A stretch of DNA of 64,000 bases, taken from positions 72,895 to 136,894 of the forward strand of contig CAZTKG010000001.1 in the NCBI GenBank assembly GCA_964613815.1, given 5' to 3'. Source of the stretch: an uncultured Gammaproteobacteria bacterium. Its GTDB lineage: Bacteria > Patescibacteriota > Patescibacteriia > UBA9934. The notes under the pieces are model-generated. The model saw only the letters and a program-made list of their open reading frames with translations, ran no database searches and had not been told where the DNA came from. Position numbers and translations under genes: made by a program. Shown one piece after another: positions 3,870 through 57,233 of the stretch; position 1 is the stretch's first letter, and the number at the start of each line of letters is the position of its first letter.

Positions 3870-3917
3870 CCCATCTCGACCGCGGTGGAGAGATCTCTCG
3901 ACTACGCTCGAGATGGG
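3870..3917. repeat. Dispersed nested-palindromic repeat, copy 1 (CCCATCTCGAC...GAGAGATCTCTC...TCGAGATGGG)
   Basis: Intergenic between tatD and cvpA. Outer 10-bp inverted repeat CCCATCTCGA/TCGAGATGGG with inner palindrome GAGAGATCTCTC. The same unit recurs at about 17205, 38149, 39748, 49996, 51218 and 57187. Confidence 0.8.
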
Positions 3918-3939
3918 AGTGATAGGAGTTTGATATTTG

Positions 3940-4437
3940 CTAAACGGCTACAGAGATAATGGTTGGAAGTGCCCAGTTGATGATGTCGTTTGCGAAGCCG
4001 ATCCAGCCGAAATATTTTGATGCTTCGATTTCTGTGAGAATGGTGCTTTCTTGGAGGAAGTTATAGGCAAGGTAGCGTGTGATGCCTAGGATGACGATTC
4101 CTTCGACGAATCCTATCGCTCCACCGAAGAGCCTGTTTAGCGAGCCGATGAATGGGAGGAATGAGATGGCTTTCCAAATGCTATGGAGAACATCGACAAG
4201 CCAGCCTGCGAGACGGCTGACGAAGATGGCGATGAAGAGAAAGACGATGATGGCGATGACGGGATCTGTGAGGGCGCCGACGTGTGGTTGGAGATAGTAG
4301 ATGCCGTATCCGCCAGCGACGACACCGAGAATGAGTCCTAGGACGCCTCCGAGGGTTTTGATGAGGCCGTTGTAGAAGCCAAGTGTGATGGTGATGCCTA
4401 GGATGGCGAGGAAGAAAATGTCAGCGAGGTTTTCCAT
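3940..4437 (-). CDS. CvpA family membrane protein
   Basis: 165 aa with 4 predicted TM helices and Gly-rich loops typical of colicin-V-production CvpA-like proteins. Confidence 0.5.
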   Translation of the reverse strand: MENLADIFFLAILGITITLGFYNGLIKTLGGVLGLILGVVAGGYGIYYLQPHVGALTDPVIAIIVFLFIAIFVSRLAGWLVDVLHSIWKAISFLPFIGSLNRLFGGAIGFVEGIVILGITRYLAYNFLQESTILTEIEASKYFGWIGFANDIINWALPTIISVAV

Positions 4438-4440
4438 AGA

Positions 4441-5901
4441 TTAGTCCCGTCTTGGGAAGAGCGGGTCTCCGGTTAAAATCTTTTCTCCATTATACCTTGT
4501 TTGAATTTCTTTTGCTGTTTCGGGGATGATGATTTCAAGAGCGTTTGCCGCCCATCGAATCATGTCGGCTGTTTCTGATAGGGCTTTTTTTGCTGCGGCT
4601 TCGTCGGTTTTGATGAGTTTGAACGGTTGGGTATTCTCGATATGTTCGTTGGCTTTTCGGACGATGTCGAAGACTTGGTCGATGTAGAGCTTGAAGTCGT
4701 AGTTATCCATTGCTTTTTCGATGTCGTCGGTTGATGCTACCCAAGTATCCTTGTCGAGAACGCCGTCGAAGTATTTGTTTGCCATAGTTGCTACGCGGCC
4801 GACGAGGTTGCCAAGTTGGTTAGCGAGTTCGGCGTAGCGTTCTTCCATGCGCGTCTTGGAATAGTCTCCGTCGCCGTGAGATGGGATTTCTCGAAGGAAG
4901 AAGTAGCGGACGGCATCGACGCCGTATTCGTTTACGAGTTCTTTTGGATGGTAGACATTGCCGATGGATTTGGACATTTTCTCCCCTTCTACGGTGATGT
5001 AGCCGTGAATGAAGAGTTCGTGTGGCAATGGCACACCTGCGGATAGGAGCATCGCTGGCCAGTAGACCGCGTGGAAACGAGAGATGCCTTTTCCGATGAC
5101 GTGGATGCGCTTGACGTCGTCTGCGGTCCAGAATGTTTGGTAGAGATCGGCGTCTTCGTGATAATCAAGCGCTGTTATGTAGTTTGAGAGTGCGTCGAAC
5201 CAGACGTACATCACTTGGGACCCATCTCCTGGCACGGGGACGCCCCAGTGTTTTGCGCGTTCTTGGGATCGGGAAATGGAGAAGTCTTCGAGGCCTCCAC
5301 GGATGAAGGAGAGGACTTCGTTCTTTTTTGATTCTGGAATGAGCTTGTAGGTATCGGATGCAATGAGGTCTTCTAACTGTTTTTGATAATTTGAAAGTTT
5401 GAAGAAGTAGTTTTCTTCCTCGATGTTTTCTAGAGGTTTTTTGTGATCTGGGCAGATGCCGTCTGGGCATTCTTTTTCTGTGTAGAAGATTTCGCATCCT
5501 ACGCAGTACATGCCTTTGTAGGTTTTTTTGTAAATGTCTTCTGGTTTGCAGGCGGCCCAGAGTTTTTGTGCGCCTTTGATGTGGCGGTCTTCTCGGGTGC
5601 GGATGAATGCGTTGTAGGACAGGTTGAGGTCCGTTTGAAGGGATTCGAATTCTTTTGCAAGCTTTTCGACAAATGTCGCCGTCTCCTCCCCTGCTGCCTC
5701 TGCGGCACGAACGTTTTTGAGGCTGTTTTCATCGGTTCCTCGGAGGGCAAAAACGTTGTCATCACCGAGTTTTGATCGGTAGTAGCGCGCGAGAGCGTCT
5801 GCTTGGATGAGTTCCATGGCAAAGCCGATGTGCGGTGCGGCGTTGACGTATGGGATAGCGGTGGTGATGATGGCTTTTTTCATATGCATGGATTGTATCA
5901 T
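4441..5901 (-). CDS. metG: Methionine-tRNA ligase
   Basis: Class I aaRS HIGH-type motif (PYVNAAPHIGF) and KMSKS (KMSKSIGNV). The CPDGIC...CVGCE knuckle is typical of MetRS. Confidence 0.9.
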   Translation of the reverse strand: MIQSMHMKKAIITTAIPYVNAAPHIGFAMELIQADALARYYRSKLGDDNVFALRGTDENSLKNVRAAEAAGEETATFVEKLAKEFESLQTDLNLSYNAFIRTREDRHIKGAQKLWAACKPEDIYKKTYKGMYCVGCEIFYTEKECPDGICPDHKKPLENIEEENYFFKLSNYQKQLEDLIASDTYKLIPESKKNEVLSFIRGGLEDFSISRSQERAKHWGVPVPGDGSQVMYVWFDALSNYITALDYHEDADLYQTFWTADDVKRIHVIGKGISRFHAVYWPAMLLSAGVPLPHELFIHGYITVEGEKMSKSIGNVYHPKELVNEYGVDAVRYFFLREIPSHGDGDYSKTRMEERYAELANQLGNLVGRVATMANKYFDGVLDKDTWVASTDDIEKAMDNYDFKLYIDQVFDIVRKANEHIENTQPFKLIKTDEAAAKKALSETADMIRWAANALEIIIPETAKEIQTRYNGEKILTGDPLFPRRD

Positions 5902-6548
5902 TTGGCGTTCATGACGATAGTGAATTCTCCTTTTGTTGAGGAGGATTCTAGAGCTGTGATGATGTCGGCGGCAATTCCTCTGTAGTGTGTTTCGAATTGT
6001 TTTGTGAGTTCCCTTGCGACGAAGAGTTTTCGGTTTTGCGGGAGGGCTTGCAGGGTTTTGATGATGCGGTGTTTTGATTCATACATCACGACGGTGTGAT
6101 TTGTGTTGGTGATGTTTTCGAAGAATTTTGCTCTTCCCTTTTTGTGTGGAGGGAATCCATAGAATGTGGCGGGGATTGGGTTGAAGCCTGAGAGCGAAAG
6201 TGCTGCCACGAGGGCGCTTGGGCCGGGGATGGCTTCGATGTTGATGTCAGACTTGATCGCGGCTTTGACGAGTTCTGTTCCGGGATCGGAAATGCATGGG
6301 GTGCCGGCGTCGGTGATGTAGGCAATGGACTTGCCTGTTTTGATAAGGCCGATGAGTTTATTGATCTTTGACGTGTTCGAATGTTCGTGAAGAGATTCTG
6401 TCTTTGTTGTTATCTCGAGTGATGAAAGAAGTTTTCGGCTCACACGCGTATCTTCACAAGCAATAAGATCCACTTGAGAGAGGATCTTGATTGCTCGGGT
6501 GCTTATGTCTTCGAGATTTCCGATTGGTGTGGCGACGATGTATAGCAT
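5898..6548 (-). CDS. rsmI: 16S rRNA (cytidine1402-2'-O)-methyltransferase RsmI
   Basis: MLYIVATPIGNLEDISTRAIKIL...ACEDTR N-terminus of the tetrapyrrole-methylase-like RsmI family. Confidence 0.85.
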   Translation of the reverse strand: MLYIVATPIGNLEDISTRAIKILSQVDLIACEDTRVSRKLLSSLEITTKTESLHEHSNTSKINKLIGLIKTGKSIAYITDAGTPCISDPGTELVKAAIKSDINIEAIPGPSALVAALSLSGFNPIPATFYGFPPHKKGRAKFFENITNTNHTVVMYESKHRIIKTLQALPQNRKLFVARELTKQFETHYRGIAADIITALESSSTKGEFTIVMNAK

Positions 6549-6552
6549 GAGT

Positions 6553-7656
6553 TTATTCTAGATTTCCTTCGATATCGACTTTCGGCATTTCGATTTCGGG
6601 GATGTGAGTACTTGCACACATCCAGAACATAGATTTTGTTGGGATGAGTTCTAGTTGTGTTCCTGTTTTGTCTCCGGAAATAGCATATCCTTCTGAACTC
6701 CAGACTGAACCAGTTTCGGTGTCTGTGATTTCTTTGGTGTCAAAATTGTATGTAAGGGTGATGCCTGGTGATGCGAATGCGCGTGTGACGTCGGTTGAGT
6801 AGTTGTAGAGTGTGACAAAGTCTCCTGTATCGATTGCGCCGAAGCCCTTGATGATTTCTTGTGGGAAGACGTGTGTGTCATTGACGGTTTCTGCAATCCA
6901 TTTAAATGGCACGCGGTCATCGATTGTTGAAAGTGGGAAGTAAATAGCGTCTGATGTGTCGTATCCTCCGAGTGGGTGCGCAGTATAGTCTCGTTCGAAA
7001 CCTGTCTCTGTTGAAAGTGCCGTGCCGTTTGGGTGGAGTTCGAACCAGGTTGACCACGTCATTCTTGCAGATGGGTATTGTTCCAGTGTTTCACCTAGAC
7101 GGTCACCAGATACGGCGATGCCGAGAATTTGACTCCAAAGCGATTCGGAGTTTTGATCTTTGAGAAGGAAGTTGTTTTGGTAGATTCGGCCATCAACTTC
7201 GAATTGGTCGTTTGTGCTGTTTTGGTAGACGATGCCGGATTGGCAGAGTGGACAGCTTGTTACAAGGAGGTTTCGTCCGTTGAATTCGTCTTGCACGATG
7301 TGATGCCAGTTGAGAATTTGATAGGAGTAGAATCGGTGCTCTCCGTTTACTTCAACGGCGATTCCGGCAACATCGTCTGCAAGAAATGCATCAGCTGCGG
7401 CTGCTGAGACGAATACTGGGTCGGTGATGGTTGGGAGGTCTTCTGCGGTGAGGCCGGAGTCATGGATTTGTTCTGGAGGGATATTGTAGCTCTCCCCTTC
7501 TGATTTTTGGATGTCTGCGCAGAGTCCGGCGGTTGTTTCGCATGAGACGTATCCTGCTTCAATGTTTTCTATGCCGGATGTTCGAATTTTTGAGAATGCA
7601 AAAACGAGGATCGCGATTGCGATAACAGCGATGATCAGTTTGGTGATGTTTGACAT
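6553..7656 (-). CDS. DUF3179-family membrane-anchored protein
   Basis: N-terminal TM anchor and the characteristic LVTSCPLCQSG motif of DUF3179. Confidence 0.55.
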   Translation of the reverse strand: MSNITKLIIAVIAIAILVFAFSKIRTSGIENIEAGYVSCETTAGLCADIQKSEGESYNIPPEQIHDSGLTAEDLPTITDPVFVSAAAADAFLADDVAGIAVEVNGEHRFYSYQILNWHHIVQDEFNGRNLLVTSCPLCQSGIVYQNSTNDQFEVDGRIYQNNFLLKDQNSESLWSQILGIAVSGDRLGETLEQYPSARMTWSTWFELHPNGTALSTETGFERDYTAHPLGGYDTSDAIYFPLSTIDDRVPFKWIAETVNDTHVFPQEIIKGFGAIDTGDFVTLYNYSTDVTRAFASPGITLTYNFDTKEITDTETGSVWSSEGYAISGDKTGTQLELIPTKSMFWMCASTHIPEIEMPKVDIEGNLE

Positions 7657-7688
7657 AACGCCTACAGCATGACCGAGTTTGGGGGTTT

Positions 7689-7717
7689 TTGCAAATTTTC
7701 CTGAGAGAATTTATAGT
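7689..7717 (+). promoter_or_regulatory. Sigma-70-like promoter upstream of the SOD gene
   Basis: TTGCAA, 17-bp spacer, TATAGT, about 25 bp upstream of the SOD start. Confidence 0.5.
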
Positions 7718-7741
7718 TGTATCTTATATTGAACTATTTTT

Positions 7742-8359
7742 ATGCAACAGTACGATCCAAAGCCACTTCCTTATACATTAAGTCTTGAGGGGATTTCCGA
7801 TAAGACGATGGAGATTCATCATGACAAGCTTTATGTTGGATATGTCAAGAAAATGTTAGAGATTGGTGGTGAATTAGCGAAATTCGTCAGCGGTGAGAAA
7901 GAAATTAAGGGGAATCAGACGTATAGCGAGCTTCGCGCGCTTCGTCAGGGGGAGACGTTTGCGAAGAATGGCGTGTATCTCCATGAGTATTACTTTTCTG
8001 TTTTGGGTGGAAATGGTGAGGCTGGTGAGGGGAAGTTGGTATCAGCGATTAATGAGACGTATGGGTCTTTGGATCGTTTCAAGGAATATTTTTCCGCAAG
8101 TGCGATGGCGGCTCGAGGATGGGTTGTGCTCGCCTGGGATGTTCAGCAGAAACGTTTGACGGTTGTTGGGTGTGATGCGCATAACCAAGGGGGTATTTGG
8201 GGATGTTTACCGGTTCTTGTTCTTGATGTTTATGAGCATGCGTATTATCTCGACTATGGCTCTAACCGATCAGCCTATGTCGAAGATTTTTGGAAGAATT
8301 TGGATTGGGCGGCTGCTGAGAAGCATTTTGCGCGATGGACGGGTTCTGACAACAGTTAA
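7742..8359 (+). CDS. Fe/Mn superoxide dismutase
   Basis: LPYTLSLEGISDKTMEIHHDKLYVGYV ... DVYEHAYYLDY are canonical Fe/Mn-SOD motifs. Confidence 0.9.
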   Translation: MQQYDPKPLPYTLSLEGISDKTMEIHHDKLYVGYVKKMLEIGGELAKFVSGEKEIKGNQTYSELRALRQGETFAKNGVYLHEYYFSVLGGNGEAGEGKLVSAINETYGSLDRFKEYFSASAMAARGWVVLAWDVQQKRLTVVGCDAHNQGGIWGCLPVLVLDVYEHAYYLDYGSNRSAYVEDFWKNLDWAAAEKHFARWTGSDNS

Positions 8360-8372
8360 TTTATATTGATTT

Positions 8373-8900
8373 TTGACTATGCTACAGATTGACTCCCCTG
8401 CCCCGGATTTTGATGGGGTGATGACGTATTATCGTGGAGAGTTTACAAAGACAAGTTTGCGAGATTTTAGAGGGCGATGGGTTTGTTTGTTTTTCTATCC
8501 TCGTGACTTTACGTTCGTGTGTCCTACTGAGATGAAGGCGTTTGGGCGTGCGGAGGGAGAGTTTGAGGCGTTAAATTGTGCGGTTGTTGCGTGTTCGACC
8601 GATAGTGAGTGGTCGCATAAGGCTTGGATTGAACGAGATTTGTCAGAGGTTCGGTATCGAGTTCTGGCTGATACAAATCATGCGGTTAGTCGTGATTATC
8701 ATGTGTTGAATGCTGCAGGAGCTAGTGAGCGAGGATTGTTTTTGATTGATCCTGAAGGTGCTCTTCGATATCATCTCGTGTCTGCTGGATCTGTCGGACG
8801 AAGCGTGAAGGAGACGATGCGTGTTTTGAGAGCGATTCAGAGTGGAGAGCTTTGCCCTGTTGAGTGGGAGCATGGTCAGGCGACATTAGGTAGCGCTTAG
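8373..8900 (+). CDS. Peroxiredoxin (AhpC/TSA family)
   Basis: FTFVCPTE peroxidatic Cys motif within a thioredoxin fold. Confidence 0.8.
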   Translation: MTMLQIDSPAPDFDGVMTYYRGEFTKTSLRDFRGRWVCLFFYPRDFTFVCPTEMKAFGRAEGEFEALNCAVVACSTDSEWSHKAWIERDLSEVRYRVLADTNHAVSRDYHVLNAAGASERGLFLIDPEGALRYHLVSAGSVGRSVKETMRVLRAIQSGELCPVEWEHGQATLGSA

Positions 8901-9147: not shown

Positions 9148-10565
9148 GCAAGTTTGATAGACGTTCCTCCTGGGATGGGCACGAAGTTTTATCTGGTTAT
9201 AAGAAGGTACATGAGGCTGAGCGTTTGATTCGATTGGAGGTCCGTGACTCTTGTCGGCGATTTTTACAGAAGTGTTCAGAGCGAATTCCAGATTTTGTGA
9301 TGAAAATTCTTGTTTTGAGCCAGTTGTTTGGCGCGGAAACGGTAATGGCTGAAACAAGTCTCAAGAGACTTCCGTCTGGTGTTGAAGGGCCAAAGGAGGT
9401 GGCTGAGAGTCAATTTGAGACAGGTGATGTTAATTTGAGTCCGGAAACGCGTAAATTTCTTGATGATTTTTTCAAACAAAATCCTGAGATGCGGGTTGGG
9501 GTTCATTCATATTCAGCAGCGGATGGATCAGTTATTGAAACTAAGTTGGGCCCGAAGGATTTCGTGGATGGGAAGGTTCTTCAAACCGACGGACGAATTT
9601 TCCAGTGGGCGTTTCAGCGGGAGCTCCCCGTTGCGGCATTGGGAGAGTTCCCTCGTGATGAATCTTGGCTTCATTATTCGGATGAGGAAGAGAAAACCGA
9701 AACTTGGGTAGGAGTTTGTATAGATACAGGGTTCTCAGATGTGGATGTTTATCGTCAGCACAAGCGAGGCGAGTCTTTTTTTTCAGAATTTTTGCACGTG
9801 GTTCCAAATCCAGCCGTCTCTGGAGATTCCGTGTCGCACGAAATTGATTTAAGAGGTATTGGCGGGCCTGAACGGTTTTTGCTGTTTGAAGGTGGGGGCT
9901 TGGAAGAGGTTGATGTTAGTGTTGAATTTGATGTCTTCCAGCACGGAATGGATGCTCAGCTGTTTATAGAAGAGAATCCTGTTTTGTTTGATCAAATTGC
10001 GGCTGCGTATACGTCCTCCAAGGCTTTGTATGGAGACCTGCTCCTGTCTTCAAAGTTTATTTTTTCTGGCAATAAATTTGAACTAGCTGGTGCCTCTCGA
10101 GCATCTTTTAGTGCTCCTGACGCTTCAGGGGCTGTTATATTGCATGAGGGTATCTTTTCGGAAGCTAAGAAGCACGGCGATTCGGTTTTTTTGGAGGAGG
10201 TTGTTGAGCATGAGTTGATTCATTTGATTGAGCGCACACATGAGCACGGATTTTTAATGTTTAAGCTTGTGTATTATCGTGCATCTTCAGATGCGGTTGG
10301 TGAGTTCAACGAATCAAATTTTTTTGGATTTGATATGGGTGGTCATGGTGAAGACAATGCAACTGAATTTTTTGCATCTTTTGTTAACAGTTTGGATCAT
10401 GATGATTGGGCTCGTCGTGTTGGAGAGCTTTCGCCTGAAGCTCAACAGCTTGCCGTTGATATGCTTGAAGCTTTAATTGATGATCTTGATGAGATAAAGC
10501 GACAAGGCAAGGATGCTGCAGTTTTACGGTTGTTGTTTGAAAAGAGACTAGCAGAATTAACCTAA
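9144..10565 (+). CDS. Hypothetical protein with an HExxH-like motif (possible zinc-dependent hydrolase)
   Basis: 473 aa. Contains VVEHELIHLIERTHEHG (HExxH followed by EH). No signal peptide. Confidence 0.5.
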   Translation: MSKFDRRSSWDGHEVLSGYKKVHEAERLIRLEVRDSCRRFLQKCSERIPDFVMKILVLSQLFGAETVMAETSLKRLPSGVEGPKEVAESQFETGDVNLSPETRKFLDDFFKQNPEMRVGVHSYSAADGSVIETKLGPKDFVDGKVLQTDGRIFQWAFQRELPVAALGEFPRDESWLHYSDEEEKTETWVGVCIDTGFSDVDVYRQHKRGESFFSEFLHVVPNPAVSGDSVSHEIDLRGIGGPERFLLFEGGGLEEVDVSVEFDVFQHGMDAQLFIEENPVLFDQIAAAYTSSKALYGDLLLSSKFIFSGNKFELAGASRASFSAPDASGAVILHEGIFSEAKKHGDSVFLEEVVEHELIHLIERTHEHGFLMFKLVYYRASSDAVGEFNESNFFGFDMGGHGEDNATEFFASFVNSLDHDDWARRVGELSPEAQQLAVDMLEALIDDLDEIKRQGKDAAVLRLLFEKRLAELT

Positions 10566-10586
10566 AAAGAGCCATATGGCTCTTTT
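10563..10586. terminator. Bidirectional rho-independent terminator between convergent genes
   Basis: AAAAAGAGCC-atat-GGCTCTTTTT, a perfect hairpin flanked by A/T runs. Confidence 0.7.
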
Positions 10587-12037
10587 TAGGTTGTGAGATA
10601 TTCGACGAGTGTTCGTACGCCAAATCCGGTTGCGCCTTTGCCGAGGTAGGACGTGTATCCTCTTCCTGCGAAGGCTGGGCCGGCGATGTCCATGTGGGCC
10701 CATGTTTGGCCTTCTGGAACGAACGCGGAGAGGAATAGGCCTGCTGTGATCGCGCCTCCGTAGCGGACGGTAGCGATGTTGCGGAGGTCAGCTATCTGAG
10801 AGTCGAGGAGTTTCATGTAGTTTTGTTCGAGCGGCATTTCCCAGAGTTTTTCTCCCGCGTCTGCGCCTGCTTTGAGGAGGGCTTGAGCGAAGGTTGGTTC
10901 GTTCGACATGAGGGTCGTGATTTCTTCGCCGAGGCCGACCATGGAAGCGCCTGTGAGGGTGGCGAGGTCGATGATTTCATCGACGTTTTGTTTTGCTGCG
11001 AAGTCGATGGCGTCTGCGAGGGTGAGGCGTCCTTCTGCGTCGGTGTTGAGGATTTCGATGGTTTTGCCGTTTGCTGCGGTCACGATGTCACCAGGACGCG
11101 TCGCTTTTCCGTTTGGCATGTTCTCTGTCGCTGCAATGATGCCATGGACTTCCACTGATGGTTTTAGGCTAGCAAGTGTTGCGAAGGTTCCGATGACGGT
11201 GGCGGCTCCGGCCATGTCGCACTTCATGGTTTCCATGCTGCTTGATGGTTTGAGGGAGAGTCCACCTGAATCGAAGGTGATTCCTTTTCCGACAAGAGCG
11301 ATTTTTTTCTTTGGGTTATCGGTTGGTGTATAAACGAGATGGATGAAGTATGGTGGTTCGTCAGATCCTGCGGCAACGGAGAGATATGAGCCCATCCCCA
11401 TGCGTTCACATTGCGCGCGGTCGTAGATATGAGCGCGAATGAGGCCGTTTGAGCGTGCAGCGATGTCCTGTGCTTCGTCCGCGAGCGTGACTGGTTTTAC
11501 GATGTTTGCTGGCGCGTTAACAAGGTCGCGTGTTTTAGTGATGCCTTCATTAATTTGCTGTGTGGTCGTAATGGTTGATTGTGCGGATTCCTCCTGCGTG
11601 ATGAGGGCGACTTCTTGCAGTTCGAGTGTCTCTTTTGGTTTTTTGAAGGTTGTGTAGTTGTAGTTTGCGAGAAGGAGGCCTTCGGTAAGGGGCTTAATGG
11701 CATGTTCTGTTCGTGGATCTATCGCGATACGTATTGCACCTAGTTTTGCTTGAAGGGCAAGGATTGATCCAGCCAATGATCGGAAATTCTCCGCAGTTCC
11801 TTTCCCTACGCCTGCAATGATGATGTGTTCGTTTGTTTTTGTGCTTGAGAAGATGAGGGTTTTTCCCGCATTGCCTTTGAATTTTGTTGCAGTCATGCGT
11901 TTTTCGAGTGCACCTTGAAGAAGGCTATTTGCTTGTGCAAGCGCCGGGGTTGAAACATCTTCGTCTTTTTTGATTGCAATGACTTTGATGTCGGCTGCAA
12001 TATCGAAGATGGATTGGTTTTTTGCAATGATGTTCAT
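10586..12037 (-). CDS. pepA: Leucyl aminopeptidase (M17)
   Basis: NTDAEGRLTLADAI and VGKGITFDSGG are M17 signatures. Confidence 0.85.
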   Translation of the reverse strand: MNIIAKNQSIFDIAADIKVIAIKKDEDVSTPALAQANSLLQGALEKRMTATKFKGNAGKTLIFSSTKTNEHIIIAGVGKGTAENFRSLAGSILALQAKLGAIRIAIDPRTEHAIKPLTEGLLLANYNYTTFKKPKETLELQEVALITQEESAQSTITTTQQINEGITKTRDLVNAPANIVKPVTLADEAQDIAARSNGLIRAHIYDRAQCERMGMGSYLSVAAGSDEPPYFIHLVYTPTDNPKKKIALVGKGITFDSGGLSLKPSSSMETMKCDMAGAATVIGTFATLASLKPSVEVHGIIAATENMPNGKATRPGDIVTAANGKTIEILNTDAEGRLTLADAIDFAAKQNVDEIIDLATLTGASMVGLGEEITTLMSNEPTFAQALLKAGADAGEKLWEMPLEQNYMKLLDSQIADLRNIATVRYGGAITAGLFLSAFVPEGQTWAHMDIAGPAFAGRGYTSYLGKGATGFGVRTLVEYLTT

Positions 12038-17127: not shown

Positions 17128-17204
17128 ATGGGGGCATGATACCATGTGGGTATACTCGCATCTGGACTGAAATGGAGAGATTTGATCGAACATTACGTCG
17201 GTAG

Positions 17205-17229
17205 AATCTCTCCACAAGGTCGAGATGGG
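17205..17229. repeat. Dispersed palindromic repeat, half copy 2
   Basis: ATCTCTCCACAAGGTCGAGATGGG. Confidence 0.7.
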
Positions 17230-17344
17230 AAAAACTTAACGTCATTTATTTTATGCGAAGATTTGAGGCCCCGCGACCGCGGGTTGAGACGCCGGAAATG
17301 GGGCGCGAGGAGTTACGACGAAAATGGGCGTTTGAGGGATTGAT

Positions 17345-36075: not shown

Positions 36076-36101
36076 AATGAAAAACACCACCGCGAACGGT
36101 G
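36076..36101 (-). terminator. Rho-independent terminator immediately after the tRNA-Asn 3' end
   Basis: On the minus strand: CACCG-TTCG-CGGTG followed by GUGUUUUUC. Confidence 0.65.
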
Positions 36102-36151
36102 ATGTTTTCTTGGCTCCGGGGGTGGGATTCGAACCCACGACCAATTGGTTA

Positions 36152-36675
36152 CACATTATCCTGATGTTTCCATCGGGGGTGGACTATATCATCATCCCTT
36201 TGGGATGCGAGGCGCTTCGAACTGATTTTTCAGCCCTACTCCTTGCGGATAGTCTCTGAACCTTCCCTTTCGGGCTTGGCTGCTGATTGCCCTGTCTTTC
36301 GATTTAGGTTTCCAGCAATTCACCTCGTTTTCACTCCAACGTTGCCGATGGAGGCTGCGTGATGCCAGCATGAATTTCTCTATGGCAGTTTGCACAAATT
36401 AGAACACATTTGTCGAGCTCTTTTTTCACCCTTTCCCGCGATCGAGTCAGTCCATCTTGAGATATTCCAAACTCTTTTTTTGATGGGTCAAGATGATGAA
36501 AGTCGAGTGCACTCCCGCATTTTTTATAGCTGCAGATCGTGCACTGGCGCCGAGATATTCGACAGCCATTTGTCTGACTTTTTTGCGCCTTTTTGAAACT
36601 GCTTTTTTGAGATACTCAGCTCTGTCGGCGTATTTTCTCTTGTCTGGCATGGTTTTCGTATACCTGACGTGTTTC
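36152..36675 (-). mobile_element. Group I intron (about 524 nt) carrying an HNH homing-endonuclease pseudogene
   Basis: Lies between the tRNA exons. Contains the P7-like GUUCAGAGACUA element near the 3' end, a 5' splice site after U and a 3' splice site after G, and an internal HNH ORF. Confidence 0.7.
36331..36650 (-). pseudogene. HNH homing endonuclease, frameshifted (1-nt deletion near 36547-36550)
   Basis: Frame A reads MPDKRKYADRAEYLKKAVSKRRKKVRQMAVEYLG. The +1 frame then reads QCTICSYKKCGSALDFHHLDPSKKEF...DKCVLICANCHREIHAGI, a complete HNH motif set. A single G deletion in ...CTCGGCG(G)CCAG... explains the break. Confidence 0.75.
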
Positions 36676-36748
36676 ACAGCCAACTGCTCTGCCACTGAGC
36701 TACCCCGGATTACTTACGTCTTGCGACGGAAATAAGATATCATGATGA

Positions 36749-38085: not shown

Positions 38086-38148
38086 GTATAGACCTCCGCG
38101 ACAAAGTATATCATGTCGCGGAGTTGTGCTTGGGGATAGATCATGCCG

Positions 38149-38216
38149 CCATCTCGAGCGAAGACATCTCCCATCTCGAGCGAAGTCGAGAGATCTCTCC
38201 GCTCCGGTCGAGATGG
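38149..38216. repeat. Dispersed palindromic repeat, copy 3 (1.5 tandem units)
   Basis: CCATCTCGAGCGAAGACATCT + CCCATCTCGAGCGAAGTCGAGAGATCTCTCCGCTCCGGTCGAGATGG. Confidence 0.8.
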
Positions 38217-38232
38217 CTGCGATTTTGATGAT

Positions 38233-39747: not shown

Positions 39748-39818
39748 CCCATCTTGAGCGAAGTCGAGAGATCTGATCACGGCAGGGCTGCGAGATCTCT
39801 CCACAAGGTCGAGATGGG
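39748..39818. repeat. Dispersed palindromic repeat, copy 4 (with 25-bp internal insertion)
   Basis: CCCATCTTGAGCGAAGTCGAGAGATCT-gatcacggcagggctgcgagatctc-TCCACAAGGTCGAGATGGG. Confidence 0.8.
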
Positions 39819-40942: not shown

Positions 40943-41067
40943 TTTGGCAAATCCTGTTCTCTCTCCTCCCCTGTTTTTATTGATTCAATTTCCTCCTTGA
41001 TACAAATGTGCTCCGTACGGACCATTTTTGTATCAAGGAGATGTTCGATGTTTTATGGCAAAAAAAT

Positions 41068-42428: not shown

Positions 42429-42550
42429 GAGGGCTCCATCTCGCCTCGGCGAGATTTGGAAGGTACAAGGACGTCTCCAGGTTCCTGGCTGATGAATTCA
42501 GACAGGCAGACGGGTTTTAGCCCGTTTTTCAATCCTTTCGGAACGATTGA

Positions 42551-42613
42551 CCTTGCGGTCCAGCTTCTTCTGACGTCTCAGGGAGAAGAGGTTGAGGGTA
42601 GCAGTGATGGTGA
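42551..42613. repeat. 63-bp exact direct repeat, copy 1
   Basis: CCTTGCGGTCCAGCTTCTTCTGACGTCTCAGGGAGAAGAGGTTGAGGGTAGCAGTGATGGTGA. Identical at 47375..47437. Confidence 0.85.
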
Positions 42614-47374: not shown

Positions 47375-47437
47375 GCCTTGCGGTCCAGCTTCTTCTGACG
47401 TCTCAGGGAGAAGAGGTTGAGGGTAGCAGTGATGGTG
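47375..47437. repeat. 63-bp exact direct repeat, copy 2
   Basis: Identical to 42551..42613. Lies 357 bp upstream of the P5 start. Embedded in an open minus-strand frame reading ...KDIANIALVVILTPIVTITATLNLFSLRRQKKLDRKATDLLEEAIERAWR. Confidence 0.85.
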
Positions 47438-47847
47438 ACGATCGGGGTGAGGATCACGACGAGCGCGATGTTTGCGATGTCTTTGTGCGCAAGGCCGAGT
47501 TCTGGGTGCGCAAGGATGCGGTGCAGGAATCGACGGAGCTGCGCGGGACGCCGCGATGGCGGGGGGCCGAATACAGGGTGATCGTCGTCGGCTTTGCGGG
47601 CGAAGGGGTTGGGAGGTCGCCGAAGCGACTTGAACAGGTTGGAAAGGTTGAGGTTCGTGGTCAGGTCTCCCTACGGATAAGAAACGTAATCCTTGAGTGC
47701 GGGCTGCATAGCCCTTCGAATCGTCTGCAAAAGCGCACCACGATTCTACCAACTCGATTGGTTTCAATGACCTTTTTCAGCACCGAAATGATGCGGAAAA
47801 AGCTTATTGAAACAGGAGTTAATATAGCATGTTTTTGGCATTTTGTC

Positions 47848-49995: not shown

Positions 49996-50066
49996 GATCT
50001 CTCCACAAGGTCGAGATGGGGCGCATGGTGGTAGATTTGTTCCCATCTCGACCTTGTGGAGAGATC
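49996..50066. repeat. Dispersed palindromic repeat, copy 5 (two inverted half-units around a 21-bp spacer)
   Basis: GATCTCTCCACAAGGTCGAGATGGGG ... CCCATCTCGACCTTGTGGAGAGATC, 25-bp perfect inverted arms. Confidence 0.85.
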
Positions 50067-51126: not shown

Positions 51127-52345
51127 TCGCTACTTCACTGTGAAGAAGACAGGTTTGCTCGTTTTGATTTGCGCACTTGGTCTGGGTGGTTTTTTTCTTT
51201 TTCGTGGGGGCGGGGAGGATCTCTCCACTGAGGTCGAGATGGGAGAGGGGGATGATGCAGGCGATCAGGAGATCATTAGAGGGCCGGTTGAGCAGATTGA
51301 GACTTACATCATTCAAGATGGTGATGTGTTTACGTCTGTTTGTGATGAGCTTGGGATTGGTTATGGGGATGCGCTTGTGATTGTGGAGAATGCAGAGGAG
51401 ATTTTTGATTTTACGAATGTGCGGGTGGGGAAAGAGATTCGGCTTGTGAGTTTAGCTGGGGAGAAGTTACGGCTTGAGTATGAGCCGAATAAGGAGGATG
51501 TGGTCGTGGTTGATCTGGCGGATTTGGAGTTTCCGACGCGGATGGAGAAGATTGCATATGACATTACGATTGAGACGGCGGCGGTGACGATTGAAGAAAG
51601 TTTGTACGCGTCGGCGCTTGCGGCGGGGATTGAGGAGACGCTTGTTTTGGATTTTGCGGAGGTGTTTGCTTGGGAGATTGACTTTGCGACGCAGGTGCAG
51701 AAAGGCGATGCGTTTTATGCGGTGTATGAGAAGCGATGGCGAGATGGTGAGGCTGCGGGGACTGGGGACGTATTGAAGGGATCGTTTACGAACATGGGGC
51801 ATACGGATTATGCGTATCGGTATGTTGATCCGGATGGGTTTGAAAGTTATTACGACGAGGATGGGAATTCGATGATTCGTCAGTTTTTGAAGGCGCCGCT
51901 TAGTTATTCGCGGATTACAAGTGGATTTACGTATGCGCGTTATCATCCTGTTTTGAACACGACGACGCCGCATCGTGCCATTGATTATGCGGCGCCGACT
52001 GGGACGCCGATTATGGCGGTGGCTGACGGGACAGTGACGCGAGCGAGTTGGAATGGGGGGTATGGGAATCATATTTCTGTGCGTCACAATGGGATGTATG
52101 ACACGACGTATTCGCATTTGAGTCGGTATGCGGTTGGGGCTGGGCAGCATGTGAGTCAAGGAGAGATCATCGGGTACGTGGGAAGTACGGGGTATTCGAC
52201 AGGGCCGCATTTGCATTATGAGGTTTTGGTGTACGGCGAGAAAGTGAATCCGCTTGAGGTGGACTTTCCTGAGGGAGATCCGATTCCGGAGGAGGAGATG
52301 GCGTTGTTTTATGCGCAGAAGGCGGATATTGATGCGTTGGATTGA
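51110..52345 (+). CDS. M23-family (LytM) peptidase
   Basis: HRAIDYAAPTGTPIMAVADGTV ... GNHISVRH ... STGYSTGPHLHYEV M23 active-site motifs. N-terminal TM. The linker contains an in-frame copy of the dispersed repeat (51218..51243, encoding GGGEDLSTEVEMGEG). Confidence 0.8.
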   Translation: MRLNFNRYFTVKKTGLLVLICALGLGGFFLFRGGGEDLSTEVEMGEGDDAGDQEIIRGPVEQIETYIIQDGDVFTSVCDELGIGYGDALVIVENAEEIFDFTNVRVGKEIRLVSLAGEKLRLEYEPNKEDVVVVDLADLEFPTRMEKIAYDITIETAAVTIEESLYASALAAGIEETLVLDFAEVFAWEIDFATQVQKGDAFYAVYEKRWRDGEAAGTGDVLKGSFTNMGHTDYAYRYVDPDGFESYYDEDGNSMIRQFLKAPLSYSRITSGFTYARYHPVLNTTTPHRAIDYAAPTGTPIMAVADGTVTRASWNGGYGNHISVRHNGMYDTTYSHLSRYAVGAGQHVSQGEIIGYVGSTGYSTGPHLHYEVLVYGEKVNPLEVDFPEGDPIPEEEMALFYAQKADIDALD

Positions 52346-52360
52346 CGTTTTGCTGTTTTT

Positions 52361-53053: not shown

Positions 53054-53160
53054 TGCTGAACCTCCATTGGCGCCCAGGGTGGCTGATCACACCACCTAGA
53101 GCAGCAAAGGAGGTTCAGTCAAAAAAACTCCTCCACGAGGGAGGAGGAAGTGAGAAACAA

Positions 53161-53211
53161 GGAAAATCCCATACGTCGTCCACGTTTGTGGACGGCCGAT
53201 GGGATTTTGAT
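53161..53211. terminator. Long bidirectional terminator hairpin between convergent genes
   Basis: AAAATCCCAT-ACGTCGTCCAC-gttt-GTGGACGGCCG-ATGGGATTTT (nested stems). Confidence 0.6.
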
Positions 53212-53317
53212 GTGACCTACCTCCTGGTGCATAACCAATTTTTCGAAATTGAGTATACCAGACTCACAAATTGGATTGTGGATAACGGAAATATAAGTCC
53301 CGCCGTTTGCAGGCGGG

Positions 53318-53700
53318 TTAGGATGCTCTTCGAGCATGAGTGGTCTCCAGTTCTTTGAGAAGTCGATCCACGACATCGTTGGGTTGGACGCCCTCACATC
53401 CCTCTGCCCTCAGTTCGAGGTCGGTGAAGGAAGATGCGGCGAAGATCGGGCCCGTGAAGCCAAGTCCGCGCCAGGCTTGAACAGCTTTGACGCATCGAGC
53501 GATCGGGCGTTCAGGGCATTCAAACGCGGCGTCGATGACGATCGCGAAAATGTTGCCCATCTTTTCGTCGAAGTGTCTACGTGCGGCAGCGAACGTTGTA
53601 ATAATTACAACTTCGATGCCTCTGGTTTGAGAATGGAGACCGGCTTGTATTCTGCGTGAATATTCGCCGTCCTCCATGAGCATCAAGACGTACATGATTG
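53318..53700 (-). CDS. Divergent receiver (REC)-like single-domain protein
   Basis: MYVLMLMEDGEYSRRIQ ... IFAIVIDAAFECPER alpha/beta pattern with a conserved Asp. The track ORF is N-terminally extended to 53884. Confidence 0.4.
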
Positions 53701-53813
53701 CCTCCTGATGCCGCGAGTATATATTGCCGATGTTTGCTGTCAATGTGTTTAATCTTGGCAAACAAAAAACCGCGGCCGAAGCTGCGATTTTTTGCGTTTT
53801 TTGTCGTAGCGTG

Positions 53814-54068
53814 TTAGTCGCGTGGGCGAGCAACAGAGACGTTGATTGTTCGTCCTTCGACTTCAGACTGGTCAAGTGCCTCAATGGCAGCCTGAGCTGA
53901 AGCTTCGTCAGCGAACTCGACGAATCCGAATCCTCGGCTTCGTCCTGTGTCTCGTTCGGTTACTACTCGAGCTGATACGATTTCACCGTATGCTTCGAAT
54001 AGACCTTGAAGTGCTGGGTCATCAACTGACCATGGCAGACTTCCGACAAATAGCTTGTTGTTCATAAT
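53814..54068 (-). CDS. RRM-type RNA-binding protein
   Basis: RNP2 KLFVGSL and RNP1 RGFGFVEF. Confidence 0.8.
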   Translation of the reverse strand: MMNNKLFVGSLPWSVDDPALQGLFEAYGEIVSARVVTERDTGRSRGFGFVEFADEASAQAAIEALDQSEVEGRTINVSVARPRD

Positions 54069-54590
54069 GATGAGCAAACAAATGTATTAGAGCTGCTCTT
54101 ATATGAATAACAAGAGAGCTCGCGCATAATAGCATATTTTGGCCGTTTTGTCAAACGTTTTATGGATTTGGTTGACTTTTTGTTGATTTTTTGGTTGATT
54201 TATGCACTGGAGTTACGATGATCTTTTTTGACAGCATCTCGTTTGGGTTACATGCGATCACTCGGTTGGTCGGTGAGGCTTGGTTGACGCACGTCCGCGG
54301 ACCTGGTCCTCGGTATGTTCGATCTGAAACCGCTTGGTACCGCGTTCTCTCGTCAACGCTCATCGATACCTCGACATGGGAGCTGTTGATTGCGCCGATT
54401 GATGATTTGTCGGATGCGCGAGAGCTCAATCAGTATTTGCCTCGGTACACCATGCAAGTTGGCACGCGAATTTTGGATTGTTTTTCGCTTTTGAGCGGAT
54501 GCGTCGCCGGTCTTATGGCTTCTCTCCTGCTCTTCTGAGCAGATGTTTTGGTTCATGATATACTGTCGATCACTAACCACAACTACACGT

Positions 54591-54941
54591 ATGCCCAAAC
54601 TTGAGGAAGTTTACAATCGCCTGCAGGTGAATAAGAAAAAGCGTTCCGAGATTGCAAAGATGTTAAAAGATGAACTTGCACATAACGCTCGATATAAAGA
54701 GATCGGCGAGGAGATGCTTGTTCTGAGGGAGGAGAAGAAATCTATTGAGATGGAGATTCGATCCCAGAGTGCGGATTTTGAAGACTTGGACGATTTGAAG
54801 ATTGACATTGCGACGGATCAAGAGCTGTTGGCAGATATTGCGCTTAATATGTATGCGAATAATGAGGAGGTGGAGATTATCGATGAATGGGACAATAAGT
54901 ACTATCCGCAGTTTAAAGTGAATTTTAAGAAGAGCAACTAG
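54591..54941 (+). CDS. Hypothetical charged coiled-coil protein
   Basis: MPKLEEVYNRLQVNKKKRSEIAKMLKDE... The track ORF starts at 54543. Confidence 0.35.
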   Translation: MPKLEEVYNRLQVNKKKRSEIAKMLKDELAHNARYKEIGEEMLVLREEKKSIEMEIRSQSADFEDLDDLKIDIATDQELLADIALNMYANNEEVEIIDEWDNKYYPQFKVNFKKSN

Positions 54942-55024
54942 CTCTATACACTGAACCCCCGCCTTCCAGATGGATGGCGGGGGTTTTGAAGATGTCGAGG
55001 TCAGTGATGACTACTTCGATAGCA

Positions 55025-55053
55025 TTGACATCATTTGATTTTCTCTGTACATT
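55025..55053 (+). promoter_or_regulatory. Sigma-70-like promoter of the ExbB/ExbD-like operon
   Basis: TTGACA, 17 bp spacer, TACATT. Preceded by the upstream gene's terminator CCCCCGCC...GGCGGGGGTTTT (54956..54988). Confidence 0.5.
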
Positions 55054-55083
55054 CAGTCCTCGTTCTTTGCACTGGAGAAGATC

Positions 55084-55527
55084 ATGAATGAAGCGAAAAT
55101 GTTTGGAAGGTTGTGCGGTCTTCTTATCATCGGCTATCTTGTGAGCAGCATGCTGATTCCTGTTGTGTTCCCGGAGATTCGTGAGTATGGAAAGCAGGGC
55201 TGGGTGGTGAATGCACAAGGCGCAGTTTTTGGCGTCGGCGCGTACTCGTGGTACATGCGGTATCACGCGATGTTTGGGCAATATGCAAGGCTGCATCGAA
55301 AGCGGTTTGAGATGGCGGTGTCGATCATTCCGCTGCTCGGCTTTTATGGCACGGTCGTTGGGATGATTGCGTTTTTGCCCACTTGGGGCCGTGGTCAGCC
55401 TGATATCGATCAGCTTGGATATGCGTTTTTGACGACGGCCGGCGGACTTATTCTGACGAGTGTTTTGATGCTTGCTGACGGCTTGAGTCATGACGACTCT
55501 GCCATGCAAGACTGGCGGACTCAATGA
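55084..55527 (+). CDS. MotA/TolQ/ExbB-family proton-channel-like protein, minimal (147 aa, 3 TM)
   Basis: C-terminal GFYGTVVGMIAFL ... LGYAFLTTAGGLILTSVLML resembles the conserved last two helices of ExbB/TolQ/MotA. Confidence 0.5.
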   Translation: MNEAKMFGRLCGLLIIGYLVSSMLIPVVFPEIREYGKQGWVVNAQGAVFGVGAYSWYMRYHAMFGQYARLHRKRFEMAVSIIPLLGFYGTVVGMIAFLPTWGRGQPDIDQLGYAFLTTAGGLILTSVLMLADGLSHDDSAMQDWRTQ

Positions 55528-56018
55528 GAAACCTGTTCTACATTACGATGGCGGATCTGATGACCGGCTTTGCGTGCGTCATCCTCTTGATCGCGAGCCC
55601 GAAGTCGTCAGTTCATGAGCGCCCTCGGCCTCAACAATGGAATATTCATCCGGAAAGCAAGGCTGCCGGTGAGCCGATGGCCGTATACAGCGTTGAGGAA
55701 GATGTGTGGACGGTTCGCGTCTACGAATACCTGGGCAATTTTGATGCGGAGCTGTACTGCCTCGATGATCGCATTGCTATTTGGAAGGATCATGAGTGGC
55801 ATGTTGGTCAGATTGAAGATCCTTGGACGCAGATGTTGCTGCCTGATGATCTCGTGGGCGCCTTTCGGCTTGATCATGATGCGTGCAAGAGCCATGTTGT
55901 GGACGTGATTTATCGTCGTCATGTACAGGCACGCGTGTCCTGGATGAGGCCTCCGCCTGATCGGTTCATTATGACTGTCCCGCGTGAGTTGTTTGGAGTC
56001 GATGATGCGTCCGAATGA
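55524..56018 (+). CDS. ExbD/TolR/MotB-like partner (N-terminal TM with conserved Asp, no OmpA domain)
   Basis: ITMADLMTGFACVILLI matches the xxD(L/V)M(T/L)xxLLI(F) channel-plug helix. Start overlaps the upstream stop (ATGA). Confidence 0.45.
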   Translation: MRNLFYITMADLMTGFACVILLIASPKSSVHERPRPQQWNIHPESKAAGEPMAVYSVEEDVWTVRVYEYLGNFDAELYCLDDRIAIWKDHEWHVGQIEDPWTQMLLPDDLVGAFRLDHDACKSHVVDVIYRRHVQARVSWMRPPPDRFIMTVPRELFGVDDASE

Positions 56019-56229
56019 GATCGTGACCGTTATCGTTCTGCTTTCTGTGATCAGATTTGCCACGAACAGGCCTGATTTAGTCCTGGTCTCCATTGGATTC
56101 CTTGCCGTCATTTGGCTCGTCAGTTTTTTGATCAGGCGGTTTAACGTCGTTGGCTACACCATGTTGGCGTCAATTGTTACTGGATGCGTGATTGGTTACC
56201 TAGGGCTCACTGCTGGTTGCTGGTCATGA
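55984..56229 (+). CDS. Small membrane protein (2-3 TM), third gene of the operon
   Basis: MMRPNEIVTVIVLLSVIRFATNRPDLVLVSIGFLAVIWLVSFLI... Confidence 0.3.
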   Translation: MSCLESMMRPNEIVTVIVLLSVIRFATNRPDLVLVSIGFLAVIWLVSFLIRRFNVVGYTMLASIVTGCVIGYLGLTAGCWS

Positions 56230-56459
56230 GTTCGCATCATATTCTTGTTCTGTTTGGTGCATTGATTGCATTGAAGACAGGTCTCTTCAATGCGGCTGCG
56301 GGCGCTACGTTGATGTTTGCGCTCTGCTGGGCGATTGCCGTGTATCGTTTGTCACAATTCCTCGTTGACGATAGGCTCCATTCGATTTGCCTCGCGATTG
56401 TGTCTGCTTACCCGATTTGCCTCATTGTTATTATTGCAAGGCTCTACCCCACTCCCTGA
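56184..56459 (+). CDS. Small membrane protein (3 TM), fourth gene of the operon, followed by a terminator (56447..56477)
   Basis: MSSHHILVLFGALIALKTGLFNAAAGATLMFALCWAIAVY... then CCCCACTCCCTGAAGTAGGGGGTTTTTTT. Confidence 0.3.
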   Translation: MRDWLPRAHCWLLVMSSHHILVLFGALIALKTGLFNAAAGATLMFALCWAIAVYRLSQFLVDDRLHSICLAIVSAYPICLIVIIARLYPTP

Positions 56460-57221
56460 AGTAGGGGGTTTTTTTCTTGCTAGGATAATTCGTTCGTCGT
56501 TTTCCGGTTCCATGTCGTCATTCCGTTCGAAATTCCATAAACCAATCCAAGGAGTCTGCTTGCTCAGTTTGATGTCGAATTTATCTTTAAGGAGATTGTT
56601 TAGCTGGCTTTCATCCAAGCAATGTGGGTGGGCGAGGTCTCGTTTTTGTTGTTCTGAAAAAACTTCTACGGTGAGAAGGAAGTGGCCTCCTGGTTTGAGT
56701 ACACGGTGGATTTCGTTGATGGTTTTTTCCGGGTTTTCGACGTGGTCGAGAACGTTTGAGTTGATGACCATATCAAAGTGCTCAGATTCGAATGGAATTC
56801 CCTCCCCTGTTCCGGTGATGATATTTATACCTGCTGGATAGCTGTAGAGCTTCTTGTACTGCTCTGCGAGCGGGTCTAGGCCGTATTGTTGGCTTCCGAT
56901 GAAGTGGAGGGCCGTGGAGATGCCGCAGCCGACATCAAGGACTCGACCTGTGGTGATGTCGATGTGTTGTTTGATGTCGTTTAAGAATCGATGCTGGTTC
57001 CAAAAGCGCTCGACGATTGCTGGATCTTGCGAAAAGCGTTTTGCCCAGCGTTCTTGATATGCGAGTTCGAAATCGTCTTTTTTGAACCATTTGTGAAGGA
57101 TCTCTTCTGGGAGAGCTTTTTTGATTGATTCTCGGATAGGCTTTGGGAGTCGTTGACCTAGTTTGATGATCATATGTTTATCCCCTCCCATCTCGAGCGA
57201 AGTCGAGAGATCTCTCCACAA
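56352..57221 (-). CDS. Class I SAM-dependent methyltransferase
   Basis: VLDVGCGISTALHF motif I and LKPGGHFLLT post-II. The true start is probably the MIIKLGQ Met (about 57173). Confidence 0.75.
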   Translation of the reverse strand: MWRDLSTSLEMGGDKHMIIKLGQRLPKPIRESIKKALPEEILHKWFKKDDFELAYQERWAKRFSQDPAIVERFWNQHRFLNDIKQHIDITTGRVLDVGCGISTALHFIGSQQYGLDPLAEQYKKLYSYPAGINIITGTGEGIPFESEHFDMVINSNVLDHVENPEKTINEIHRVLKPGGHFLLTVEVFSEQQKRDLAHPHCLDESQLNNLLKDKFDIKLSKQTPWIGLWNFERNDDMEPENDERIILARKKPPTSGSGVEPCNNNNEANRVSRHNREANRMEPIVNEEL

Positions 57222-57233
57222 GGTCGAGATGGG
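57187..57233. repeat. Dispersed palindromic repeat, copy 7 (most complete unit)
   Basis: CCCATCTCGAGCGAAGTCGAGAGATCTCTCCACAAGGTCGAGATGGG. Confidence 0.85.

Follow-up and report, generated by a model that had tools for sequence, protein, structure and literature searches.

Among the described families of dispersed bacterial palindromes, those closest in organization to the one reported here are the repetitive extragenic palindromes (REPs) and bacterial interspersed mosaic elements (BIMEs) of Enterobacteria and the REPINs of Pseudomonas. These are imperfect palindromes of 20–40 nt that form inverted doublets, are numerous and lie mostly in extragenic DNA near gene ends (PMC3733652, PMC3337134, PMC2817692), and one end of a REP bears a conserved GTAG or CGTC tag that stays unpaired (PMC3733652). 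Our subject is a dispersed family of short hairpin repeats in a 64-kb stretch of contig CAZTKG010000001.1 (hereafter the window), which shares much of this anatomy: its units are short imperfect palindromes, they occur as doublets with variable linkers in which an inverted pair can fold as one long hairpin, and they lie close to the ends of genes, in many cases in spacers that separate co-directional genes and now and then within a gene. Unlike REPs mobilised by a REP-associated tyrosine transposase (RAYT), the family has no GTAG/CGTC tag and no RAYT was found in the window and its 16-kb flanks; and unlike REPs in general it has a GA/GA internal loop, a bulged T and a module that is present across phyla.

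The repeating unit is smaller than the 47-nt nested palindrome proposed in an earlier, sequence-only reading of the window. It is a half-unit of 25–26 nt, CCCATCTCGA-N7/8-GAGAGATC, which is itself a structured hairpin. On its G/A-rich strand the half-unit reads 5'-CC(C)-ATCTC-GA-[S C NNN G T S']-GA-GAGAT-CTC, and its predicted fold has seven base pairs: a 5-bp stem is followed by a conserved GA/GA internal loop, the closing S-S' pair and then a C-G pair with a bulged T, capped by a loop of 2–4 nt that is often GNA; the half-unit oligonucleotide d(CCCATCTCGAGCGAAGTCGAGAGATC) is likewise predicted to show the GA/GA internal loop, the bulged T and a GNA loop. Recurrent filler types are GCGAAGTC, GCGTAGTC, CCTTGTG (5 copies), CCGCGGTG, CCTCAGTG and CCGGAGCG. 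Complete arms are 25 nt long, with an outer inverted repeat of 10–11 bp.

Twelve clear half-units, one degenerate arm and one truncated arm are spread over seven loci of the window (Table 1), and all seven loci listed in the sequence-only reading bear the motif, as judged by inspection, shuffled controls, a structure-aware regular expression and a covariance model. In particular, the search it had proposed with the 25-mer, allowing ≤3 mismatches, gave five matches in the window and none in 100 shuffles, while the outer 10-mer with ≤1 mismatch gave 18 matches against 6.2 +/- 2.5 in shuffles. The structure-aware expression for the folded half-unit matched 12 times, compared with 0–1 times across 10 shuffles. 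A covariance model (R1), built from 44 distinct half-units and run on the window with filters off, found 12 half-units at E <= 7e-4 and gave the degenerate arm at 17157–17184 an E-value of 0.25, the remaining matches being noise. One possible copy that had been put forward, 42431–42456, was not recovered by the model and has been dropped from the family; it is a plain 8-bp palindrome that lacks the GA modules.

Table 1. Copies of the hairpin repeat in the window. The strand given for a half-unit is that on which it is G/A-rich; bits are covariance model scores; fold energies are in kcal/mol.
Copy	Position	Form	Half-units or arms	Bits	Predicted fold	Setting
1	3870..3917	full unit, 48 nt, no centre	3870-3897 (+, filler CCGCGGTG); 3890-3917 (-, filler GCGTAGTC)	42.5; 48	-33 (RNA), z about -6	22 nt past CvpA stop, 9 nt ahead of TatD start; both genes - strand
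2	17155..17229	decayed full unit, 22-nt centre	left arm 17157-17184 (GCATCTGGAC..GGAGAGATT); right arm 17204-17229, intact (filler CCTTGTG)	13.9 (E 0.25); 23.8	-38.5, z -7.1	between divergent genes; ATG at 17253, 23 nt downstream
3	38148..38217	truncated extra arm (38148-38170), then full unit	38170-38197 (+, filler GCGAAGTC); 38190-38217 (-, filler CCGGAGCG, outer end ..GGC)	48.7; 42.2		begins 15 nt past ABC-F gene stop (- strand); about 27 nt to next start (assumed start)
4	39748..39818	full unit, 71 nt, 20-nt centre TGATCACGGCAGGGCTGCGA	39748-39775 (+, one C-to-T giving a T.G pair); 39792-39818 (-, filler CCTTGTG)	40.9; 36.6	-42	7 nt past ZIP stop, 51 nt ahead of ABC-F start (- strand)
5	49996-50020, 50042-50066	head-to-head pair, 21-nt spacer, 100% complementary	two identical CCTTGTG-type half-units		-54, z -9.2	between divergent GATase and HD genes; HD ATG 27 nt downstream
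6	51218..51243	solo half-unit	(-, filler CCTCAGTG)	38.2		in frame in M23 peptidase gene
7	57187..57233	canonical full unit, 47 nt, no centre	57187-57214 (+, filler GCGAAGTC); 57207-57233 (-, filler CCTTGTG)	48.7; 36.6	-27 and -31	10 nt past sulfotransferase stop, 13 nt ahead of methyltransferase ATG (- strand)

The half-units are combined in several ways. There are five tail-to-tail pairs with centres of 0–22 nt, three of them (copies 1, 3 and 7) without a centre and two (copies 2 and 4) with one of 20–22 nt, and there is one head-to-head pair, copy 5, in which the perfect 25-nt inverted pair around a 21-nt spacer was described correctly from the start and runs in the reverse sense to the other pairs. 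Copy 6 is a solo half-unit, and copy 3, formerly described as 1.5 tandem units, is indeed more than one unit but consists of a full unit and an extra truncated arm. For copy 2 only the intact right arm (17205–17229) had been noticed, and the full decayed unit extends much farther to the left; its inner stem remains paired because of a compensatory GATT/AATC change. The extra DNA of copy 4, given before as an insertion of 25 bp, is a 20-nt centre (71 versus 47 nt for the unit). Most pairs are asymmetric, with a G..C-type filler in one arm and a C..G-type filler in the other. Structure prediction, which the earlier reading had also suggested, gives whole window units fold energies between -27 and -54 kcal/mol (z-scores between -2.3 and -9.2). 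A further copy was found 7 kb left of the window (locus L169, 17670–17786), and no family member was found in the 8.8 kb of right-hand flank that was scanned. The L169 copy has a 33-nt insertion within one arm and also contains the copy 4 centre module, inverted, and this recurrence indicates that the centre is a module in its own right.

Because the stems covary, we conclude that there is selection for intrastrand pairing. Seven variants of the 5' stem (ATCTC, ATTTC, ACCTC, ACTTC, ATGTC, ATCCC and ATTCC) are found in the window and related loci, each of them always accompanied by its complementary 3' arm. When dinucleotide pairs were tabulated without constraint, the recurrent alternatives were all complementary (TT/AA 22, CC/GG 7, CT/AG 3, TG/CA 2), and the non-complementary stem combinations are singletons, with a few found twice, nearly all of which have fillers unlike those of the family. 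The first and last bases of the filler, a closing pair that was left free in every search pattern used, pair in 54 of 56 distinct fillers (G-C 28, C-G 20, A-T 5, G.T 1). In alignment A3, 97.1% of cells are paired, a level reached in 0 of 500 shuffles and well above the 23–62% of slid controls, and its pair 11–18 is GC in 24, CG in 16 and AU in 4 cases; since the A3 stem columns were pre-filtered for pairing, only the closing pair and the dinucleotide tabulation are unbiased. The GA...GA dinucleotides are invariant across the collected half-units, in part by construction because the collecting search pattern fixed them, and we read them as a predicted tandem G.A internal loop. Tandem G.A internal loops and C-GNA-G loops stabilise single-stranded hairpins. 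Of 95 units, 82 with RNA parameters and 87 with DNA parameters have the better predicted fold on the G/A-rich strand. At one locus (L131) the two arms of a single unit have unlike stems, ATCTC and ATTCC, and so the constraint acts on each half-unit, as it does for the REPs in a REPIN.

The window is chromosomal and encodes MetRS, TatD, CvpA, ATP synthase subunit a, SOD, peroxiredoxins, GreA, TruB, a DEAD-box helicase and many open reading frames (ORFs) that have no Pfam match. An identical copy of its M23 peptidase is present on the 579,396-bp ENA scaffold SUTE22-1_SAMN10231923_METAG-scaffold_2 (assembly ERZ23498905); the next-best M23 homologs are 53–62% identical, and those with names belong to Candidatus Uhrbacteria, Peregrinibacteria, Magasanikbacteria and 'Patescibacteria group'. 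The host is therefore an uncultured bacterium of the candidate phyla radiation (CPR), related to Uhrbacteria. The repeats are dense and mostly intergenic, as had been claimed: 12 half-units occur in 64 kb, 11 of them extragenic, and dispersed copies are 1.2–21 kb apart. When copies are mapped against gene ends, a comparison that the earlier reading had recommended, the six extragenic loci of the seven lie 7–27 nt from the end of an adjoining gene. Four units fill short spacers between co-directional - strand genes, 7–22 nt past the stop and 9–51 nt before the next start, and two occupy the spacers of divergent gene pairs, where a start codon follows after 23 and 27 nt. The asymmetric pairs do not share one orientation with respect to their neighbours: copy 1 is co-oriented with its genes, and copies 3, 4 and 7 are opposed. 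The terminal GGG of copy 7 merges into a GGGAGGGG stretch immediately 5' of the methyltransferase ATG.

Copy 6 does lie in frame within the M23 peptidase gene, as first noted, where it encodes DLSTEVEMG in a hypervariable acidic linker that follows the membrane anchor. In an alignment the linker around it, a very variable stretch, is ~6 residues longer than in most homologs, and the copy may plausibly have arisen by insertion there. No window unit was called as a terminator, and none has a T tract, the only match being a marginal, partial one at 38205–38219. Neither the window units nor the Anaerococcus loci described below had a match in Rfam at gathering and E-value thresholds.

The half-unit is found well beyond this genome. 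The pattern used to scan genome collections, GATCTCTC-N6-9-TCGAGATGG, was permissive, and the counts from that scan are lower bounds. The module is multi-copy in at least 10 Anaerococcus/Peptoniphilaceae genomes (Firmicutes), and Anaerococcus copies identical to the 25- and 26-mers of the window occur (GATCTCTCCACAAGGTCGAGATGGG and GATCTCTCGACTACGCTCGAGATGGG). Full two-arm units of like architecture, with a hairpin or a plain centre, are present in Uhrbacteria (L058), Doudnabacteria (L082, L097, L098, L108), another Patescibacteria metagenome-assembled genome (MAG; L052), an unclassified bacterium (L032), two Bacteroidota genomes (L070, L094) that include the isolate Pontibacter amylolyticus, and a Pseudomonadota MAG (L023) in which two units flank lspA. 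About 20 positions are conserved across phyla. A strict half-unit pattern was found in 39 metagenome stretches, 38 of which have 24–35% G+C and by composition are probably Anaerococcus-like. The distribution is patchy: 21 kb of a related Uhrbacteria genome held no copy. Carriage by phages or plasmids was considered and rejected, as viral contigs gave two stray matches and the plasmid and phage collections gave no match to the units.

The Anaerococcus copies show turnover. The spacer that follows a small conserved gene (CPHC motif) is orthologous in four species; its first unit is kept in all four and the later modules vary in number, and this difference at one orthologous locus indicates that units are gained and lost. 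One species has an insertion of ~85 nt exactly in the loop of a half-unit that is an intact 27 nt in another; comparable loop insertions recur at locus L035, and the Anaerococcus clusters are mosaics of modules. On one strand 27 of 81 units are followed by a run of ≥5 T, versus 5 of 81 on the other, and full units lie between A and T runs directly past stop codons, so that in these AT-rich genomes the units look like hairpins co-opted as terminators. We also note a second Anaerococcus element of ~85–100 nt, CTAAAACC...GTTTTAG..., which is palindromic and lies exactly inside half-unit loops (L035 1046–1170 and 558–680; L004 within 4200–5300). The hairpin loop thus appears to be the target of this second element.

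Taken together, we consider it probable on balance that these are non-autonomous hairpin repeats of the REP/BIME/REPIN kind. The sequence-only reading had called them a REP/MITE-like mobile element (MITE, miniature inverted-repeat transposable element); the anatomical half of this description holds, since the repeats are short imperfect palindromes in inverted doublets, extragenic and dense, and for the other half, mobility, no transposase in the window and its 16-kb flanks, no target-site duplication and no empty site were found. A number of results do weigh against the REP-like interpretation. The window units have no GTAG or CGTC tag, the 5' flank being CC(C) and the 3' flank CTC; eight units (the seven in the window and that at L169) are all free of flanking direct repeats; and the cross-phylum module could instead mean a conserved function, because REP families are usually lineage-specific. 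No transposase domain of any kind was found in the ~60 window ORFs. When E. coli RayT and a home-made hidden Markov model for Y1 transposases were compared with all collected ORFs, the window, its 16-kb extensions and ~70 Anaerococcus-like loci yielded no Y1 transposase; Y1 genes were found only in L011, L040, L087 and L120–L128, and the flanks of those in L011, L087, L120, L124, L126 and L128 (not L040) carry other palindromes. Among these, the RAYT-like genes of Uhrbacteria (L011, L120, L124) are flanked by NNGCT(T/A)AGCNN, a palindrome class absent from the window, and that of Luteimonas (L087) by classical GTAG REPs. Among the 120 best-listed relatives of a CPR Y1 transposase, none is on a contig as long as the 579-kb scaffold. 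No neighbouring protein family recurs, 122 flanking ORFs matching 142 families that are all ordinary. Thus the RAYT or IS200/IS605 partner that had been anticipated was not found in the window, its 16-kb flanks or the related loci.

The other explanations must be judged against the same observations. That the family is a chance pattern, or an artefact of assembly or chimerism, has a negligible probability and is for practical purposes already refuted: the 17-base genome-scan pattern is loose, a few hundred chance matches to it are expected in 596 Gb by our own arithmetic, and many single matches of that scan are due to chance, but shuffled windows yield only 0–1 matches, 7.2 kb of the region is 100% identical, repeats included, in an independent Logan assembly, the units sit among intact CPR genes on a 579-kb scaffold, and cultured Anaerococcus isolates have many copies. 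A more serious alternative is that each copy is a conserved functional site kept locus by locus, either a hairpin bound by a conserved host protein or an operon-internal signal for RNA processing, stability or termination. The ~20 positions conserved across phyla, the covarying structure, the tight placement relative to gene ends and the strand-biased T runs and A/T-flanked full units of Anaerococcus would all fit such a site. We nevertheless think it unlikely, as paired window units have no consistent polarity, lack T tracts and are not called terminators, neighbour unrelated housekeeping genes and include one copy within a coding region, unit number varies at the orthologous Anaerococcus locus, and decayed, truncated and nested copies occur.

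MITEs such as Correia/NEMIS, ERIC and RUP are, like this family, dispersed intergenic elements that are short and non-coding and have inverted repeats at their ends, and the repeats could in principle be internally deleted derivatives of a DDE-type insertion sequence (IS), with the 10–25 bp terminal inverted repeats as transposase sites and double-stranded cut-and-paste as the means of movement. TG...CA termini are typical of DDE transposons. The arms are inverted repeats; units in the Pseudomonadota MAG, the two Bacteroidota and the unclassified bacterium begin TGTCAT(T/C)TCGA and end TCGAGATGGCA or TCGAAATGACA, so that TG...CA ends are present in some lineages; and each L023 unit has the same stem variant in both arms. 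In contrast, the window units end CCC...GGG and are only 47–75 nt long, solo half-units are common and as short as 25 nt, no target-site duplication is visible at any copy, and about 170 loci yielded no parent IS with these ends, no long copy with an ORF between its ends and no autonomous copy in which two ends 0.6–4 kb apart surround a transposase (the sole 2.6-kb inverted pair, L129, encloses two convergent ordinary ORFs). In addition, the covariation is internal to the single arm, and two arms of a unit may be unlike, which is not expected of plain transposase-binding repeats. We regard a MITE origin as quite improbable. Returning to the REP-like interpretation, a wider form of it would make the window repeats part of an undescribed cross-phylum superfamily of single-strand hairpin repeats, outside the GTAG/CGTC REP super-families, not tied to RAYTs, and moved or read by a factor common to Patescibacteria, Peptoniphilaceae, Bacteroidota and Proteobacteria; this we put forward tentatively, as a possibility that is on present evidence rather doubtful. 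Were it true, candidates for the factor would be a new mobilising enzyme specific for hairpins and a conserved host protein exploited by the elements.

If the repeats are of the REP kind, copies would multiply via a single-stranded intermediate in which an enzyme acting in trans recognises the folded half-unit. That enzyme might, as a guess, be an HUH-type single-strand transposase, and hairpin-driven template switching would be an alternative to it. Copies would persist only where they do little harm, in intergenic spacers of 60–130 nt and one disordered protein linker, and the inserted hairpins, at -27 to -54 kcal/mol, would be transcribed within operons, where they would probably form inter-cistron RNA structure that affects stability, processing or pausing.

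Several other known systems resemble the family in part. The subterminal hairpins of IS200/IS605 elements are small, imperfect, have an extrahelical base and are recognised single-stranded, with one set of ends per element beside tnpA; no tnpA was found in the window and the loci searched, and its repeats have no defined cleavage tetranucleotide; these hairpins serve only as a model for half-unit recognition. Rickettsia palindromic elements (RPE) are palindromic repeats that can sit in frame in genes and add a peptide segment, much as copy 6 does in the M23 peptidase, but the likeness is one of description, just one of our seven loci is intragenic, and the window units are far shorter. BOX elements of Streptococcus pneumoniae are modular, with variable module numbers and no known mobilising enzyme. 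The modular build of our family and its mosaic Anaerococcus clusters recall them, but the sequences are unrelated and the modules shorter. Integron attC sites, which separate cassettes, have R''/R' boxes of consensus RYYYAAC...GTTRRRY in uniform orientation; they were rejected because the window copies have no AAC/GTT boxes and are in mixed orientations. CRISPR and TIGR-Tas arrays were also rejected, as the units are dispersed, recurrent filler types are few and no Tas gene is present, TIGR arrays consisting of tandem repeats at regular spacing beside the gene of an associated protein (PMC12045711).

The searchable literature held no report of dispersed palindromic repeats in CPR/Patescibacteria genomes, literature searches on Anaerococcus repeats gave nothing relevant, and literature matches to the repeat sequence string were primers only. 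CPR genomes are small and tightly packed, and this family takes up most of several intergenic spacers. With copies 9–27 nt from start codons and one within a gene, it likely affects operon expression and genome rearrangement, and it will disturb metagenome assembly and gene calling. A specialist would not expect a structured module of ~26 nt, loop included, to be identical in CPR and Anaerococcus and present in at least four phyla, since classical REP families are not spread across phyla in such a manner. If a single recognition factor explains this conservation, it would provide a new handle on REP-like spread without a dedicated transposase.

We also record some features of the Y1 loci encountered in the enzyme search. 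The RAYT-like Y1 genes of Uhrbacteria encode proteins of 205–231 aa (L011 3660–4620, L120 2800–3900, L124 2800–3700) that belong to a protein family widespread in Patescibacteria and Omnitrophota, and their flanking palindromes, e.g., CAGCTAAGCTG and CGGAGCTTAGCTCCG, make up another REP-like class in CPR. In the available relative with the nearest M23 peptidase (59% identity; JGI 3300072015), a 280-aa Y1_Tnp gene, 6 kb from the M23 gene, and a resolvase gene lie 5–7 kb upstream of M23. The Luteimonas MAG (L087) has two direct half-unit-like copies at 3579–3611 and 4631–4663, a distance of 1052 bp, which read TG(T/C)CATCTCGACCGCAGGGAGAGATC when taken on the complementary strand. A GGGAGAC(G/C)TCCCGGG hairpin precedes both; just downstream of the second copy is an ORF that is probably the source of the sole T2SSE match, and the classical GTAG-REP cluster with its RAYT gene is 2 kb away.

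Some other features of the window are recorded here. A perfect palindrome of 17+17 nt, AACCTAAAAAGAGCCAT/ATGGCTCTTTTTAGGTT, lies between convergent genes at 10559–10592, and one of 24+24 nt, 88% complementary, lies at 40993–41040; neither is related to the repeats. An exact 63-nt direct duplicate occurs 4.8 kb apart, at 42551–42613 and 47376–47438, in or next to two hypothetical - strand genes. Over the first 60 kb the + strand is very strongly skewed, with a GC skew of +0.08 to +0.34 and a negative AT skew whatever the gene strand, and beyond ~60 kb the GC skew is slightly negative. Finally, a group I intron splits a tRNA gene on the - strand at 36100–36711, a gene that ARAGORN overlooks. Its 5' half, TCCGGGGTAGCTCAGTGGCAGAGCAGTTGGCTGTGAA, runs from 36709 and has the anticodon loop CTGTGAA (GUG, probably His); the ~510 nt between the halves include an Rfam Intron_gpI match at 36160–36425 (95 bits) and also an 82-aa ORF at 36447–36695, and the 3' half, with the T arm GTGGGTTCGAATCCCAC and ...CCGGAGCCA, follows the intron.

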